From the NCBI GenBank assembly GCA_017654855.1, contig CM030334.1, forward strand, positions 2,852,001 to 2,916,000: DNA of 64,000 nucleotides, read 5' to 3'. Position numbers and translations under genes: made by a program. Numbering within the stretch: the stretch's first letter is position 1; every line of letters begins with the position of its first letter. Below the pieces are notes generated by a model that worked only from the letters and a program-made list of their open reading frames with translations, searched no databases and was not told the origin of the DNA. The DNA is from Podospora anserina (Eukaryota). Positions 40,762-50,680 of the stretch are shown here, piece by piece.

Positions 40762-41810
40762 CTTGGTCGCCTGGGTGGCTGCGGAGCGGGAGAGTGGTAG
40801 AAAAAGGGTCTCTCGGCTATAATCTACCGGTGTATATCGTCATATCCATAGTATTTCCTTCTCTTTCGGGCTTCTGTGATCGTCGTTTCTTCTCCCGGTT
40901 TCTCGCAGGACGCAGCAGTGTTTGAGTACAAAGGCTTGAGAGTAGGTTTGTGTAGCGGTGGTTAACGGTTTCCGGGTTCGGTCGCTCGGGGCAATTGGTC
41001 CAGCGGCTGTTGAGGTCGCACAGCGGTTTTTGGTGTCTGAGATTCGAGTTGGCGCAAACTCTAAAATTTTGGAAGAACATTTGGGAAGCTGACCGTTTAC
41101 ATTGAGAACGAACGACTTAAAATGAACGACTGGAGAGAGGACGAGGGCAAAGCCACGCTCGTCTGAACATCGTGACGGCGGCACGGACACAACCATCCTT
41201 ATAGGTTTCACCTCACTTTCGGATCAACGACGGCGAGGCTGCATATCAAACCCTTGACAATCGCCCGATTGAGCTGCATTTATCGACATGTAACACGAGA
41301 TATTCCCACCTCACATCCCCTATCATCAGGCACGGAGACTCTTTGGGTCTAGACTCAGGCACATGTTGTGGTTACTGCACCCGTCCGGTCTCCGGCTCGG
41401 ACGATGGGGGTTGTTGGTTGTTGGTCTTTCGGTCTATGATTTATGGGCTTTGTAGACATTCCACATGGTATGTATAATCAACTCAAACCTGATGACGAAG
41501 TCTCTAAACAGAATCAATCAAGCCCAGCCATAGTCAACAAGGCAGACTTGAGGGCTTCCGAGTTGTTCGCATCAGGTGATTTGCACTATATCAAATCTGT
41601 AGACCTCTCACCTATAGGCGGACGATGGAGCGGCTGAGCATGAGCCACACCAATTCCAAGCGGCAAGGCACCCACGATCTGACTGACTGCCAGCTGGATA
41701 AGGCTCTGCGGAAGAAAGTGCATTTCCTTCTTCTATCAACTTTCTGAAAGCACATCAGAACATCTAATTAATACAGCATACATCTTCGACAGGGACGCGC
41801 TTGAACAATT

Positions 41811-44800
41811 ATGATGCCCTCGGTCTTGCCATCACACCGGAAGCGGATGGCAACCGATGAATTACAGGAAGAACGCTCCATTCTACCGCCGCCGTCCGCT
41901 AGGGTTCCCCGGGGCCTGGTTGACAGTGACCGAAACCAGATCCTAGAACCTGCCGTTGCCAACGAGTGCGTACTTTTGCTGGTTTGATGTCTCAATAGAC
42001 TGTTTGCTGACAGTTGCCAGTGCCGTGGCAGAAACACCTCAGCGGACTTCCCTTGGACTATCGCAGGACCGTCAGTTAGTAATCCGGTCTTCGACAACCA
42101 ACAATGTAGTCAGCACGTATGTCCCACCCCGACGTCCAGCCAAACGGAGCGACTTCAGCATTGCCATCATCTGCGCGCTCCCATCAGAGGCCACTGCCGT
42201 GGACGCTGTCTTCGACGTCTACTGGGATGACAAGGGTCCACCTTACGACAAAGTTGCTGGTGATCCCAATGCGTATACCACCGGTGCCATTGGTCGTCAC
42301 AATGTTGTTCTCGCACAGATGTCAGAGATAGGGAAAGTAAGCTCTGCGGTGGTGGCATCCAACTGCAGGCACAGTTTCCCCAACATCAAGCTCGCACTTG
42401 TTGTGGGGGTCTGCGGCGGCGTCCCTTTTAGCTCTACAGACGATGTCAGCACAGAGATTATACTTGGCGATGTTATCATCAGTACTGGGATCATTCAGTA
42501 CGATTTGGGACGACAGTATGATGATCACTTCGAAATCAAGGCCGGGCTTTTGGATACTCTCCCCAGGCCCAGTCGAGAAGTACGCTCTTTTCTCTCGAAA
42601 CTGACGCTCCCGCGGCAGAGGAAGATGCTTGAAGAGGAAATGGCCAAGATCATGTCGGTCCTGTCTGCCCTGCCGGCCCAGTTGGGCCTGTCTACCCAAT
42701 ATCCAGGCGCAGCAAAGGACAAGCTTTATAAGGCAACCTACAGCCATATCCGCGAAAAGGAGTTGTGCGAGACCTGTGGGTGCGACGGCGAATTAGTGAC
42801 ACGCGAGAGGCTCGGTCATGAAACTCCGCATCCTATGGTTCACCTGGGTACCATGGCTTCAGGCGACAGCGTCGTGAAATCAGCAGCATATCGCGACAAG
42901 ATTGTGGCGGACTCGAAATTGAAATTGGAGGAGAACATCATAGGGTTCGAGATGGAAGGAGCAGGAGTTTGGGACACATTCCCTTGTGTTGTGATCAAGG
43001 CTGTCTGTGACTATGCGGACAGTCACAAGGCGAAAGGATGGCAGCCATACGCAGCTGCTACCGCCGCCGCGTGTATGAAAGCATTCTTGAAGAAATGGAC
43101 TCCTTCTCCTTCTCTTCAGGACGATACCTGTACGTAATAGTCTCATTAGCTTGCAATCTCTACATACTATCTCGGAAGTTGTCTCATGCGCATTTAGTTT
43201 CTGTTCCATACCCACGGAACAATAACTTCGTCGGTCGGTCAGATATTTTAGCGAAGCTACATCAACTGTCGTGCAACTCCACCTCACAGACTCGAGTTGC
43301 TCTCTGCGGTCTTGGGGGCATCGGGTAAGTTCAATTCGTTCATGCTGTTAATATCACCTAACACCTGACAGGAAAACACAAATTGCCATCGAGTTCACAT
43401 ATCGGATCCAGCGTACTTACCCCAACATATCAGTCTTTTGGGTTCACGCAAGCAACCACGAGCGGTTCCGTGAAGCATACACTGCTATCGCACAAAAATA
43501 CCGGATCCCCGGGCATGAAGATCCCAAAGCAGAGGTGCTGCCATTGGTAAAGAGCTGGTTAGAAAGCCAGGAGCGTGGTCAGTGGATCATGGCAATCGAT
43601 AATGCTGATGATCTGGAGCTTTTCAACAGCAATGGTAGATTGGGACGCTACCTTCCAGAGTGTGCGCACGGGACTATCCTCATCACCACAAAAAGCCTGC
43701 AGGTCGCCTTGAGACTAACCAAAGGAATGGCCTCGTCCGTTATTAGTATCGAAAAAATGGATGAAGTCGATACAGCCCAGTTGCTCTCAACACGGCTTGC
43801 AGGAATCGACACGATGCCCGGGGATTATGCAGGACTTTCTGCTCGGCTTGAGCATCTACCATTGGCACTGGTTCAGGCGGCTTCGTTCATCCAAGAGAAC
43901 AGTATCACGATCTCTCGATACATCCAACTCCTGGACGAGAGCGACGACGAGACTCTTATCAATCTACTTAGCAAAGACTGTGAAACGGATGGGAGAGACT
44001 CGGACACTCCTCGCGCAGTAGCAGAGGTTTGGATTATCTCTTTCAAGCAAATTCACAATCGGAACACCCTCGCAGGCGAGCTTCTTGCAATCATGAGTTT
44101 CCTCGATCGCCAGACCATTCCCTACGAATTTCTTTTCACGTACGCCAAAGACCACGGTGCAGGAGAGCTTCAGCTCATCGAGGCACTAGGGGTATTAAAA
44201 GCGTTTTCATTTGTCACTGAAGACAAAGACCAGAAATTTGATATCCATCGACTCGTGCATTTGGTCACTCGAAAATGGCTGGTTCAGAACGGCATAAAGC
44301 AAAAATTCGCCGAGCGGGCACTCTTGGTCGTGACTGTGTGTTTCCCGTGGGGGGAGTACAAGAATTGGACTATATGCAACGCATACCTCCCGCACACCAC
44401 TGCTGTGTTAAAACTAGGAGAAGACATTTCCTCAAGACAAGGAAAGCTGGCGAGAGCAAGCCTTCTTCATAATGCGGGCGCGCTTTTCTCTGGACGGGGA
44501 GATTTCCAGAGAGCGGCATTGTACCTGAAAGAAGTATGGGAGATCAGTCAAGCCCACTTGGGCGAAGAGCACCCAGGCACATTAACCAGTATGAACAACC
44601 TAGCATCAACATACCAGTCACAAGGCCGGTGGAAGGAGGCCGAATTACTACACCTGCAAGTACTGGAAACTGGAAAGAGGGTTCTAGGAGAAGAACATCC
44701 CCATACATTGGCTAGTATGCACAGCCTAGCATCAACATACCGGTCACAAAGCCGGTGGAAGGAGGCCGAATTACTACACCTGCAAGTACTGGAAACTGGA

Positions 44801-46882
44801 AAGAGGGTTCTAGGAGAAGAACATCCCCATATATTGGCTAGTATGCACAGCCTAGCATCAACATACCAGTCACAAGGCCGGTGGAAGGAGGCCGAATTAC
44901 TACAACTGCAAGTACTGGAAATTCGAAAGAGGGTTCTAGGAGAAGAGCACCCAGGCACAATAACCAGTATGAACAACCTAGCATCAACATACCAGTCACA
45001 AGGCCGGTGGAAGGAGGCCGAATTACTATACCTGCAAGTAGTGGAAATTCGAAAGAGGGTTCTAGGAGAAGAACATCCCGATACATTAAATAGTATGCAC
45101 AACCTAGCATCAACATACCAGTCACAAGGCCGGTGGAAGGAGGCCGAATTACTATACCTGCAAGTAGTGGAAATTCGAAAGAGGGTTCTAGGAGAAGAAC
45201 ATCCCGATACATTAAATAGTATGCACAACCTAACATCAACATACCAGTCACAAGGCCGGTGGAAGGAGGCCGAATTACTACAACTGCAAGTACTGGAAAT
45301 TCGAAAGAGGGTTCTAGGAAAAGAATATCCCGATACATTAAATAGTATGCACAACCTAGTATTAACATACCAGTCACAAGGCCGGTGGAAGGAGGCCGAA
45401 TTACTACACCTGCAAGTACTGGAAACTGGAAAGAGGGTTCTAGGAGAAGAACATCCCCATACATTGGCTAGTATGCACAGCCTAGCATCAACATACCAGT
45501 CACAAGGCCGGTGGAAGGAGGCCGAATTACTACACCTGCAAGTACTGGAAACTGGAAAGAGGGTTCTAGGAGAAGAACATCCCCATACATTGGCTAGTAT
45601 GCACAGCCTAGCATCAACATACCAGTCACAAGGCCGGTGGAAGGAGGCCGAATTACTACAACTGCAAGTACTGGAAATTCGAAAGAGGGTTCTAGGAAAA
45701 GAACATCCCGATACATTAAATAGTATGCACAACCTAGCATCAACATACCGGTCACAAAGCCGGTGGAAGGAGGCCGAATTACTACACCTGCAAGTACTGG
45801 AAATTCGAAAGAGGGTTCTAGGAGAAGAACATCCCCATACATTGGCTAGTATGCACAGCCTAGCATCAACATACCAGTCACAAGGCCGGTGGAAGGAGGC
45901 CGAATTACTACAACTGCAAGTAGTGGAAATTCGAAAGAGGGTTCTAGGAGAAGAGCACCCAGGCACAATAACCAGTATGAACAACCTAGCATCAACATAC
46001 CAGTCACAAGGCCGGTGGAAGGAGGCCGAATTACTATACCTGCAAGTAGTGGAAATTCGAAAGAGGGTTCTAGGAGAAGAACATCCCGATACATTAAATA
46101 GTATGCACAACCTAGCATCAACATACCGGTCACAAAGCCGGTGGAAGGAGGCCGAATTACTACACCTGCAAGTACTGGAAACTGGAAAGAGGGTTCTAGG
46201 AGAAGAACATCCCCATACATTGGCTAGTATGCACAGCCTAGCATCAACATACCGGTCACAAAGCCGGTGGAAGGAGGCCGAATTACTACACCTGCAAGTA
46301 GTGGAAATTCGAAAGAGGGTTCTAGGAGAAGAACATCCCGATACATTAAATAGTATGCACAACCTAGCATCAACATACCGGTCACAAAGCCGGTGGAAGG
46401 AGGCCGAATTACTACACCTGCAAGTACTGGAAACTGGAAAGAGGGTTCTAGGAGAAGAACATCCCCATATATTGGCTAGTATGCACAGCCTAGCATCAAC
46501 ATACCGGTCACAAAGCCGGTGGAAGGAGGCCGAATTACTACACCTGCAAGTACTGGAAACTGGAAAGAGGGTTCTAGGAGAAGAACATCCCCATACATTG
46601 GCTAGTATGCACAGCCTAGCATCAACATACCGGTCACAAAGCCGGTGGAAGGAGGCCGAATTACTACACCTGCAAGTAGTGGAAATTCGAAAGAGGGTTC
46701 TAGGAGAAGAGCACCCAGGCACAATAACCAGTATGAACAACCTAGCATCAACATACCAGTCACAAGGCCGGTGGAAGGAGGCCGAATTACTACAGTTGCA
46801 AGTAGTGGAAATTCGAAAGAGGGTTCTAGGAGAAGAACATCCCGATACATTAAATAGTATGCACAACCTGGCCTTAACTTGA
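41811..46882 (+). CDS. Fungal NLR-like STAND protein: PNP_UDP_1 (nucleoside phosphorylase) - NB-ARC - TPR repeats; stops at TGA 46880-46882 unless bypassed
   Basis: Start ATG 41811 or 41847; introns ~41966-42020, ~43130-43197 and ~43325-43371. PNP motifs IAIICALPSEA, GDPNAYTTGAIGRHNVV, LVVGVCGG, GFEMEGAG, IKAVCDYADSHK. P-loop GLGGIG/KT split by an intron; Walker B IDNADD; ILITT; LPLALVQA; IHRLVH (MHD-like); then kinesin-light-chain-type TPRs. Confidence 0.92.
44558..46882 (+). repeat. Tandem array of 18 complete + 1 partial 126-bp (42-aa) highly conserved TPR units
   Basis: LGEEHPxTLxSMxxLASTYxSQxRWKEAELLxLQVxExxKRV at exact 126-bp spacing (unit starts 44558+126n); most nucleotides identical between units. 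Confidence 0.97.
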
Positions 46883-47599
46883 AGGGGTCTGGGGCGGCCT
46901 AATGATGCGTTAGAGCTGCTTGAAGAATGCCTTTGTCTGAGAGAGAAAGTGCTTGGGTTAGATCATCATGGGACCATTAACACACAAGCGGAAATAGCTT
47001 GGTCATATATGGAGCAAGGTCGATTACCTGAGGCTGAAAGAATACAAGCGGGAATGCTAGGAAAGCGGAAAAGGATATTGGGAGAAGAGCATCTTCACAC
47101 GCTGATCAGCATGATTAACCTCGCACATACTTGGAAGGTCATGGGTCGCCTTGAGGCAGCTGTAGAGTTGATGCAGGAGTGTGTTCGCCTCCGTCAGAAG
47201 GTCTTGGGCTCGGATCATCCCGATACCGTCGAAAGTTTGTCGGCACTGGAAGAATGGCAGGATTTGAGAGGCGAAGGCGGTGGCAACGGGAACACACACG
47301 GCAATTCTGAGGCAAACACTGCAATGAAGAGCGGTGAGAACGCCGGTGGGAGCAGCAGTCACCACGAAGACGTCGATAACGGCACGGATGACGATGCTGG
47401 TTACGAGGGCAACGAGAACGGGAACAACAAGGCTGGCCAGAGCTCAGAATCTCAGCAATGTCAGGCCACCAGGGGCGGGGATGAGAAAGGCAACATCGGG
47501 GACGGAATCCAAGATGGCGAGGGGCGGCGCAGCAGCGAAGATGGGAAGACAGTTGAGGCTGACGAAAGTGGATATGGGCCTAGGCCAGAACGTTTCTAG
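46883..47599 (+). other. In-frame continuation of the NLR beyond the TGA: divergent C-terminal TPRs plus a Gly/Asn/Asp/Glu-rich tail
   Basis: Same frame as the 43535 ORF (46949-43535 = 3414 = 3x1138). Reads ...NLALT*RGLGRPNDALELLEECLCLREKVLGLDHHGT...NLAHTWKVMGRLEAAVELMQECVRLRQKVLGSDHPDT. Confidence 0.85.
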
Positions 47600-48359
47600 G
47601 AATATTATCAGGATAAACAGGGAGGGCTGGAGCAGAGCTTTGTCTAATAGCTAACGCCACTTGAGGAACTACCTAGGAAAGGAGGGGACGACAGGTATCG
47701 TGGAATACTCAGTTTCCTTCTTTTATTCTGATGTTTTTCAGCTTTTGACAGTATGTTTCAGGGCCACATACCTATATCGCGGATTTCATTCTGTAGCTTA
47801 ATTGTGTGTATCACGCCTAGGTAGCCATAGCTAATTACAAAATATTGTGTGGCCCGGAACCATACCTTCGTCATCACCAACAATCGATATTCCGTACCAC
47901 TTCCAGCCAGCTTTGCTCGGCTTCTTGCTGTTGCTACTTCAACAGGGACTGTAATTGAGCTGATGTACTTACTGCTGGTACTCTTTTGACCAGAGCAATA
48001 TACATTTCTTGGACACGATAGAAACGTCGAAGACCGTAAAGACAGGGGGGCATTGCAAAGGCAGCCTTTAGATTTTACCAAGTCGACATGATGTCAACCA
48101 GTACAGGTGATGATGGTAATCTGTTCCATTCTCCCTAACATAACATACAGTATTCCTCTTCAAACCCAACTTCACTCTTCCCAAGCCAAAAACCAACCCC
48201 CTAACAATACCCCATCTCTTCTAACCCCCCACCAAAAACCCCAATCATAATCCTAACAATACCCTATCTGTCTTTCCTTACAGCAATCAATCCAGAATCA
48301 AAAGAAAACGACTCCCAAATAATAAAAACTCCAAGCTAACAAAACCCTTCCCCCACCAT

Positions 48360-50680
48360 CTAATACCCCTGCCCACCACTCCCACCCCCCGACCCAGAAA
48401 TCATCAAACCAGCCCTCTTCTGCCTAACAGCCATCTTCTCCTTCCACTCCCGTCCCAGAGCCCTACTCCGTTCCGCAGCCTGCTCCCTCGCCATCTTGGC
48501 CGCCTGCTCCCTCTCCTTCCTCTCCCTCTCCCTCTCCAAAGTAAAAGAATTATCCCTCTTGAAAATCTCCTTCCCCCTCATCTTCTGCTGCTGCACCTCC
48601 TCCTGGCTCACAGTAGTAGTAGTAGTGCTGCTCCTCTTCCCACTACTGCTAGCAGCAGAAGTGGCCGACATCCCCCTGCTAGAAGAACCCGCTCCCCCAG
48701 CAGAAGGAGCAGCAAGAGATGTCCGACCTCTAGTCGTCGTTGCCGTCGTGGTCGTCAGAGACACAGCCGCCGCTGACCGTGTCGAAGCAGCCACCGTGCT
48801 AGAAGCATACCCACCCCCAGTAACAGCAATGGAATGCCTCATTCTCGCCGCAGAAGCTGACGTAGGCGCAGTAGCAGTCGAGGTATGCGTCGGCGTCGTC
48901 GCCTGTCCCCCAGCCTCCATCCTAGCCTGCCTCGCCCGGCTAGTAGCCGTCTCCCGAACTGAATTTCCCCCACTGCTGCCAATAACACTCGCACGAATTG
49001 GTCTAGCCTTGAATTCCCTCCTCTTTTTCTCCTCCTCTTCTTGCGCCTTCAGCCGCGCCTCGCGTTCCTCCCTCTTCCGCCGTGAAATCGCCTCCCCAGG
49101 CAACTCAAACGTCGGACGTGTCAACGGCTTGCTAGACTTGGCATGCGGCTTGCTAGGCGAGAATTGCGCGGCAATAGCGGCAGCTTCTTCGGCAGAAACC
49201 TGCTGAGAGAGCCTCGCGGCGCGCTGTTCCTTCAGGCGACGGGCGACAGCCTCACCAGGGAGTTCAAAAGCCGGGACGGTGGGTGCTCTGCTACATTTCA
49301 CCGTGGCCTTGGGAGGCAGCAGACTAGAAGGACGGGCAATAGAGCGGCGGACTGTAGAGGTGTTGGCGGCGGTCTTGGAAGTAGAAGCAGGCTTGTCATC
49401 CTCCCTAGCCGATGACGCCGACGTCGACTTCCGGACCGACGAGCTGCGTTCAGCTGTGCTGCGTGTACGGGTAGTAGTGTGAGTAGTGGTAGTAGTAGAA
49501 GTCGACGCTTTAATAGTCGAGGCCCGTCTTGTCGACGTTGAGGGCTGCTGCTGAACAGGAGCCTCAGGAATAGACTCAAGAACCGGCTCGGTGGCCAACT
49601 CAGGGGAAACCACCCTTTCCAACTGAGCCACCTTATTAAGGGCCTCAAGTTCCTCCTCAAGCTTATCAAGTTCCTCAACCGAGTCCTCAATCCTCGAAAG
49701 CGGCCTAGCAGGCTGCGGCGACGGCAAAGGAGACAAGTGTTCCATGCCCATCAACGACTCATCAACCTTGATACTCAACACCGACTTTGGCCTCTCCTCC
49801 TGCCCCTCCGGCTGCAGATTCTCCTCCCCGCCCCTCAAAACAGTCGAGTTCTCCTCCTGCGAAACATTCCCAACAACACTGCTATCCGCCTCCTCCACAA
49901 CAACAGACTGCTCCACAGCAGACATCTCCTCTTCACTCTCCACCCGAGTAGCTAAAAGGGTATACCTGTTAGTGAGCGAGCCACCATGGTCGACAGAAGC
50001 GCCATCAGACTGCGTCCTGTTATGGATAAGGTTGCACCCAAACAAGACATTCTTCCCACCGCCGCCGCTGCCCAGATCGGGTTCTTGGTCTTCTCCGTCA
50101 TGGGAATCACCGAGAGACCGGTTTCCCACCCGGCGGCGCGACTTGCTGCGAAACGGGAGCGGAATCGTAAGAAGCCATTCGAACTGACCTTCCTGGTGCT
50201 TTCTTATCTGCTCCAAGTTGCTGGGGAGCCGGTGCTCGGCTTGGGCTAGGGGGTTGTTGTGCTTGAAGTCTACATCAACCAAGAATTAGCATTGACTCTG
50301 TAAAATGTCTCAAGACAGTGAAGCTCACCGTCAGAGGCAACAGTTGTCTCGCTTCCGTTGGTGGTGGCAGAAACCACACGGTGCTTGTCAAAAAAAGGAT
50401 GATCGTATTCAATGTTGTTGTCAACAGACAACCGAACCCTCCGGTCCTTGGCCTTGTGTCCCTGCTGACAATTGCCTTCCTTCGAAGAGTATTCAAGATG
50501 GAGGCTGCCCAGATCTCGGGCCAGAGAATCAATGTTGAGCGAGTTAAGATTGTGAATATCGCTCAGGACGGCGAACTTGTTGCCGGGTGGTAAGTTGGCC
50601 TTTTGCGAGAGATGGCTGTGGTCAGTGTGGATGTCAAAGTCGAGACTCGGCCGATGTCTCGAGGTGGTGGTGGCCATCAT
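48360..50680 (-). CDS. Coiled-coil protein with TPX2-like FKARP motif; putative microtubule-associated protein
   Basis: Two exons (intron ~50270-50328). Motifs SRIEDSVEELDKLEE, two FELPGEA repeats, EEEEKKRREFKARPIR and C-terminal AREQAAERSR coiled coil. Function is inferred. Confidence 0.65.

Follow-up and report, generated by a model that had tools for sequence, protein, structure and literature searches.

Mosaic repeats of changing number have already been described for the TPR NLRs of Podospora. In passages of Dyrka et al. (2014; PMC4986451), a Podospora TPR NLR combines repeat-number polymorphism with selection on the concave face, and passages of a 2026 study (PMC13449251) report 1,024 pooled TPR repeats of high internal conservation (HIC) from 13 strains, with HIC and length polymorphism perfectly correlated. 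The latter passages also describe Pa_3_8170, with two allelic classes, divergent PNP-UDP domains, balancing selection and a peak of Tajima's D, and argue against a het function for most NLRs of Podospora. The PNP domain of a fungal NLR cleaved ATP, according to passages of bioRxiv 2023.01.24.525353. Here we analyzed 64,000 nucleotides of Podospora anserina (assembly GCA_017654855.1, contig CM030334.1, forward strand, positions 2,852,001 to 2,916,000), referred to as the window, which hold an NLR gene with PNP_UDP, NB-ARC and TPR domains. It is likely that the 18 full TPR units of this gene form a selected, reshuffled sensor array of a Podospora PNP_UDP-NB-ARC-TPR NLR. From the locus tags of its closest matches, we infer that the gene is Pa_3_8170 or its orthologue, and the locus has probably already been surveyed.

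The array has a period of 126 bp according to Tandem Repeats Finder (44579-46869, 18.2 copies, 92% matches, 0% indels), and its 2.3 kb contain neither indels nor stops ahead of a TGA in unit 19. The original prediction, made from the letters alone, saw a combinatorial mosaic of a few sub-repeat alleles, and its cassette assignments matched the alignment unit by unit. The helix-A cassette is of type G in units 1, 4, 12 and 18, of type H in units 2, 3, 8, 9, 11, 14, 16 and 17, and of type D in units 5, 6, 7, 10, 13, 15 and 19; the other switches, QSQG/RSQS, H/Q/Y, L/V and TG/IR, were found as well. Variation affects 27 of the 126 nucleotide columns and leaves 23 of the 42 codons invariant, and 15 of the 18 units are distinct. 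Mean identity between units is 92.3% for nucleotides and 84.4% for amino acids (minimum amino acid identity 0.71). Judged by pairwise amino acid identity (0.84) instead of the T-REKS measure, the array lies above the HIC threshold of Psim at least 0.7.

Recombination among the units, also predicted, was borne out by the alignment: 76 of 231 informative site pairs are incompatible and arranged in blocks, a permutation test resembling the pairwise homoplasy index (PHI) gave p=1.5e-4, and the Hudson-Kaplan minimum is 2. The three helix-A cassettes are tree-compatible internally and in conflict with the downstream switches. Such a block pattern hardly results from recurrent mutation, although single conflicts could. 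The modules do not recombine as freely as had been proposed, however, and their assortment is partial. Only 13 of 72 possible combinations were seen, TG is followed by an H cassette in the next unit in 7/7 cases (p=0.0007), and the strongest linkage spans the unit boundary, from codon 30 to the cassette of the following unit (9 such haplotypes in 18 units). Adjacent units were no more alike than in shuffled order (p=0.35), and a drift of RSQS toward the 3' end of the array was not significant (p=0.07).

A few rare residues share a mutational signature. The singletons Tyr3, Val14 and Leu15 (unit 7, 45320-45364) and Thr14 (unit 6, 45233), plus Lys1 in units 7 and 10, all stem from C-to-T or G-to-A changes, possibly fresh hits of deamination or of a process like repeat-induced point mutation (RIP) that are still unhomogenised. 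RIP indices of the non-array coding parts equal the window background; TpA/ApT is higher in the array (1.21), owing to one repeated unit.

Passages of PMC12222747 state that arrays of this sort cannot be rebuilt from Illumina data, and the mosaic order might accordingly be an artefact of a collapsed or scrambled repeat. We regard this as very unlikely. The absence of any indel over the array argues against it, as do the orthologues from separate assemblies, which show a mosaic of the same kind. Short-read contig depths in sequencing run X2 (5.9x, 4.4x and 2.5x of the flank, against 7, 5 and 2 window copies) fit the composition of the array rather than its order, and X2 is possibly itself the source of the window sequence.

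The array differs between samples and species. We compared four of 24 sequencing runs (X2, X8, X9 and X19) over 46706-48200. X8 yielded four contigs with array pieces at 1.2x and 1.6x flank depth, for which the simplest contig path suggests about three full units, a count in which identical units could be collapsed. It carries Gln-Leu-Thr at codons 30, 34 and 36, which no unit of the window does; in the window, Thr36 occurs with His30 in 7/7 units. X9 and X19 also carry repeat codons absent from the window. Repeat number is polymorphic as in other HIC NLRs, with 18 units here against about three in X8 and nine each in P0121 and P0122 from sister species. Because of the differences in X8, X9 and X19, the array is not monomorphic, the outcome that the original prediction had named as speaking against it. 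Six runs that look like RNA and bear the same species label contained a fraction of only 0.18 of the words of 41800-44560, a figure that does not in itself show a second allelic class.

Passages of PMC13449251 use a P-loop GxxxxGK[ST] and a Walker B aspartate as criteria for NLRs. The window gene has both, along with an N-terminal effector domain and C-terminal superstructure-forming repeats (19 TPR_10 stretches in Pfam), and is a fungal NLR with HIC repeats, as had been proposed. Its reading frame counts 1633 codons from the ATG at 41811 to the TGA, or 1872 if continued to the TAG at 47597-47599. The PNP domain keeps the acidic residues in ALPSE, FEMEG and VCDYAD, as judged by column counts among homologues; we take these to be catalytic by transfer from MTA/SAH nucleosidases. 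With the PNP fold and these presumably catalytic residues, the domain is a candidate Cap17-like effector, and ATP nucleosidase activity is its most likely predicted function.

The top protein matches of the gene were proteins with _308170 locus tags from four species of the Podospora anserina complex, at 91-93% identity. A shorter-protein search yielded no version of the gene from P. anserina or P. comata, and no P. anserina reference protein came up in either search. The four sister-species orthologues share 95-99% identity among themselves but 92-93% with the window allele. They are thus closer to one another than to the window allele, as would fit an old allelic lineage.

The support for selection on the array is positional: the same eight codons are variable in three separately homogenised arrays. 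The comparison covered the arrays with at least nine units (window, P0121 and P0122), leaving out P0001, P0002, P0003 and P0004. Codons 5, 8, 11, 12, 15, 18, 34 and 37 vary in all three, eight observed against 1.85 expected (p=1e-5), a probability that is overstated, since the null treats all codons as equally free and ignores structural constraint and shared ancestry. No identical unit is common to the window and the orthologue arrays. An AlphaFold2 model of units 1-6 (predicted local distance difference test, pLDDT, 85.6) places helix A at residues 4-19 and helix B at residues 23-40 of each unit. In a fold search, this model matched kinesin light chain and 4Y6W, a structure from Podospora. 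Variable codons were mapped onto the concave face by the Pfam register (TPR position equals codon minus 6) and passages of PMC1261162, not by model coordinates. Codons 8, 11, 12, 15 and 18 correspond to TPR positions 2, 5, 6, 9 and 12, which are ligand contacts in those passages; codons 5 and 6 were taken as positions 33 and 34, which is an approximation. Counting alleles seen at least twice, 6/8 face codons are variable against 7/34 others (p=0.006), and with the six strict positions only, 4/6 against 9/36 (p=0.06). The proposed location of variable residues on the concave face holds in this respect for helix A.

Several points weigh against a selected sensor array, beginning with the overstated probability of the shared-codon test. 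The helix-B switches (G/S, H/Q/Y, L/V and TG/IR, at TPR positions 15, 24, 28, 30 and 31) lie outside the listed binding face, so that the proposed location is not supported for them. The claim that variable sites mostly alter the amino acid is correct as a count, with nonsynonymous changes in 16 of 19 variable codons, but there is no excess over neutral expectation. At least 20 nonsynonymous changes stand against nine synonymous ones where 29.5 of 126 sites (23%) are synonymous, and with pN/pS at 0.92 (binomial p=0.88 for a synonymous deficit) the amino acid bias is no more than chance and gives no evidence of selection. The Pfam matches of the orthologues to NB-ARC are weak (E 2e-4 to 5e-4, under the curated cut-off), and the literature passages name no ligand or phenotype for the gene. 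Outside the array, the 21 private substitutions past residue 420 do not avoid conserved sites (0.69 vs 0.72, p=0.28), and four of them fall at sites that are 98-99% conserved. Run X8 carries a second stop in the acidic tail (C to T at 47453). With its own stop and an altered motif, the window allele may be altered or disarmed.

In this allele, a Trp codon that follows helix A of unit 19 has become TGA, and the diverged C-terminal repeats are lost. In X8 and X9, which are other samples from other studies, contigs run across the TGA without a difference, so it is not an assembly error; X2 and X19 have no coverage there. The gene models P0002 and P0004 skip the repeat that holds the stop position. 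Past the stop, the frame is identical to P0122 in 116 of 125 residues, and a search with it returned one match. The C-terminus appears labile more generally, since P0121 terminates early, the end of P0122 differs and X8 has its second stop in the tail. Separately, Logan protein P0136 is a copy of the post-stop frame with seemingly wholesale C-to-T changes on one strand, as in bisulfite data or a RIP-mutated copy.

The NB-ARC domain is altered too. The window allele has TTKS in place of TTRN, which we infer to be the equivalent of plant RNBS-B, a motif whose arginine senses the gamma-phosphate in plant NLRs (passages of PMC7205312). Compared with four agreeing orthologues, the first 861 codons contain 44 private substitutions, and 13 of the 21 past residue 420 lie between residues 571 and 683, including E597D and F667C at near-invariant sites. 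In the PNP domain, the MPGIGK-type loop reads MSEIGK; it includes G154E, at a site that is Gly in 21 of 28 homologues. The patch just before GK (42316-42336) is variable, with QMSEI in the window and HMPGI in four orthologues, while Logan protein P0124 has RTSGK there, and may mark allelic classes.

These features raise the possibility that the window holds a loss-of-function copy, in which shuffling of the array is the ordinary behaviour of tandem repeats and selection does not act on its current composition. A TGA at a conserved Trp, the substitutions in TTRN, at residues 597 and 667 and in the PNP loop, and the neutral pN/pS of the array would all fit such a copy. Both post-stop differences in X8 and X9 would harm or alter the protein (one nonsense, one Cys to Tyr), and in some strains, several NLRs of Podospora have become pseudogenes (passages of PMC13449251). 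The 44 private substitutions, however, brought neither a stop nor a frameshift, and the array has stayed free of indels and stops. The TGA leaves a terminal helix A, after which P0121 likewise ends, and passages of PMC13449251 place Pa_3_8170 under a positive peak of Tajima's D. We consider a loss-of-function copy doubtful.

The TGA and the near-invariant changes in NB-ARC nevertheless make active sensor function of this particular allele doubtful. For the window allele we lean slightly toward a folded but altered receptor. That it is disarmed, with an array still shuffling mechanically, is a minority view that deserves attention, and a bypass of the stop in this allele is improbable. If selection no longer acts on the arrays of the truncated allele, a mosaic array alone is no evidence of an active sensor. 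We give little credence to the idea that the allele with TGA and TTKS represents a functional class of long standing that has been maintained, acting as a re-wired or decoy receptor whose C-terminal cap is lost, or is restored through regulated bypass of the stop, while selection on its array continues. If true, this class would let one test in nature how specificity depends on array length, cap and nucleosidase class together.

Alternatively, the TGA could be a regulated switch that yields short and long receptors through a 57-nt intron, adenosine-to-inosine editing or readthrough. In-frame splice-like signals surround the stop, a scan of three coding stretches outside the array gave no comparable candidate, the frame stays open for 238 codons and the stop is common to two other samples. 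In addition, a contig of X19, an RNA run by guess, spans 46943-47859 and stops at 47859 while the DNA continues; this is one study, from which we claim no transcript end. Against a switch, the splice-like words derive from coding sequence, as the 5' hexamer GTATGC is present in 15 of 19 units, and splicing would remove 19 residues in the middle of a repeat. The run contigs contained no joint that removes the candidate intron, the sole RNA-like run having no coverage of the site. Fungal editing that corrects premature stops acts on UAG and prefers U before the edited A, whereas here the stop is UGA with G at position -1, and the second stop in X8 would end a long receptor downstream. Such a switch is decidedly improbable.

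The remaining alternative is a true allorecognition (het) gene, in which repeat order sets vegetative incompatibility. Its design is that of het-d and het-e, the allelic classes and balancing-selection signal of Pa_3_8170 would suit it, and so would the distance of the window allele from orthologues that are closer to each other. Yet passages of PMC13449251 give P. anserina about 75 NLRs but nine het loci, describe the allelic classes by a difference in the PNP domain and not in the repeats, and, in the main-text passages, do not call Pa_3_8170 a het gene. We consider this alternative unlikely.

A selected, reshuffled sensor array thus remains our preferred reading, and we propose the following mechanism. 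Misaligned recombination among near-identical 126-bp units, presumably by unequal crossover or gene conversion, would homogenise the scaffold; the same recombination, for which the site conflicts and the variation in repeat number speak, would alter the number of repeats and re-assort a few sub-repeat alleles. Long-term selection on the gene lineage may preserve diversity at those residues of helix A that face the concave groove, and each array would thereby present a different binding surface. By analogy with homologues, binding of a non-self or modified-self ligand would switch NB-ARC and free the N-terminal nucleosidase, which most likely would destroy ATP and kill the cell. The locus has value as a clean example, offering few sub-repeat alleles, a large length difference between samples with the same stop, a candidate ATP-degrading effector and a tractable fungus.

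The coordinates of the gene and its parts are collected in Table 1. The flanking genes are housekeeping genes, e.g., for carboxylesterase, shugoshin and exportin. A low-complexity open reading frame of 641 codons without a Pfam match lies directly 3' of the NLR gene on the minus strand (48360-50285). Another minus-strand frame of 804 codons runs antisense across the array (44548-46962) and is most likely a by-product of the stop-free repeat unit.

Table 1. Positions in the window of the NLR gene, its domains and motifs, the repeat array and the region around the stop
Feature	Position	Strand	Basis
NLR gene, PNP_UDP - NB-ARC - TPR	41811..47599	+	orthologue-guided splice model, Pfam, homologues
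Modelled introns	41966-42020, 43130-43197, 43325-43371	+	orthologue-guided model
PNP_UDP_1 nucleosidase-fold effector domain	42160..43089	+	Pfam E=7.6e-11; MTA/SAH nucleosidase and PADLOC effector matches
Walker A GLGGIGKT	43308..43379	+	interrupted by 47-nt intron 43325-43371; complete after splicing
Walker B region IDNADD	43595..43612	+	splice model
TTKS instead of TTRN (RNBS-B-like motif)	43685..43696	+	R in 124/127, N in 125/127 homologues
18 full 42-residue TPR units, high internal conservation	44564..46831	+	Tandem Repeats Finder, unit alignment
Unit 19, helix A only ahead of stop, D cassette	46832..46879	+	register starting at 44564
Candidate 57-nt in-frame intron over stop (GTATGC ... 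CTAAT ... TTAG)	46857..46913	+	sequence only, unsupported
In-frame TGA, unit 19	46880..46882	+	Trp there in P0001, P0121, P0122, P0003
Open frame past stop: rest of unit 19, two diverged TPR units, final helix, acidic tail, 238 codons	46883..47599	+	

Among known systems, the closest is Pa_3_8170 with its counterparts QC764_308170, QC763_308170, QC762_308170 and QC761_308170 (passages of PMC13449251), which resemble the window gene in architecture, repeat type and tail and share 91-93% identity outside the repeats. The window allele differs from this group by 18 units with their own cassettes (H/D/G, H/Q/Y, TG/IR), by the TGA in unit 19 and by TTKS; none of these features is mentioned in the main-text passages of PMC13449251. 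Pa_2_10340 (passages of PMC4986451) shares NB-ARC, near-identical kinesin-light-chain-like TPR units, number polymorphism and variable sites on the concave face. It differs in having a sesB-like effector, and positive selection was shown there from pooled alleles and not for the window array. The 42-residue TPR-like repeats of Podospora (PDB 4Y6W and 4Y6C) and kinesin light chain are related in sequence (E=1e-33) and in fold (template modelling score, TM, 0.74-0.88), but they are structural relatives only, and the repeats of kinesin light chain are not homogenised. For the effector, Cap17-like ATP nucleosidases, including NLRN of Hyaloscypha variabilis (passages of bioRxiv 2023.01.24.525353), offer the comparison of a TPR-containing fungal NLR that begins with a PNP domain, whose acidic motif residues are kept here. 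The original prediction had named the WD40 arrays of het-d and het-e as precedent. These HNWD genes (passages of PMC12222747) are comparable in concerted evolution, shuffling of a sensor array and few hypervariable codons, but their sensors are WD40 propellers, they contain NACHT and HET domains, and both their ligand (HET-C) and their phenotype are known. That precedent understates how close the known systems come, as this kind of analysis had been applied to TPR arrays from the same species in 2014 (passages of PMC4986451).

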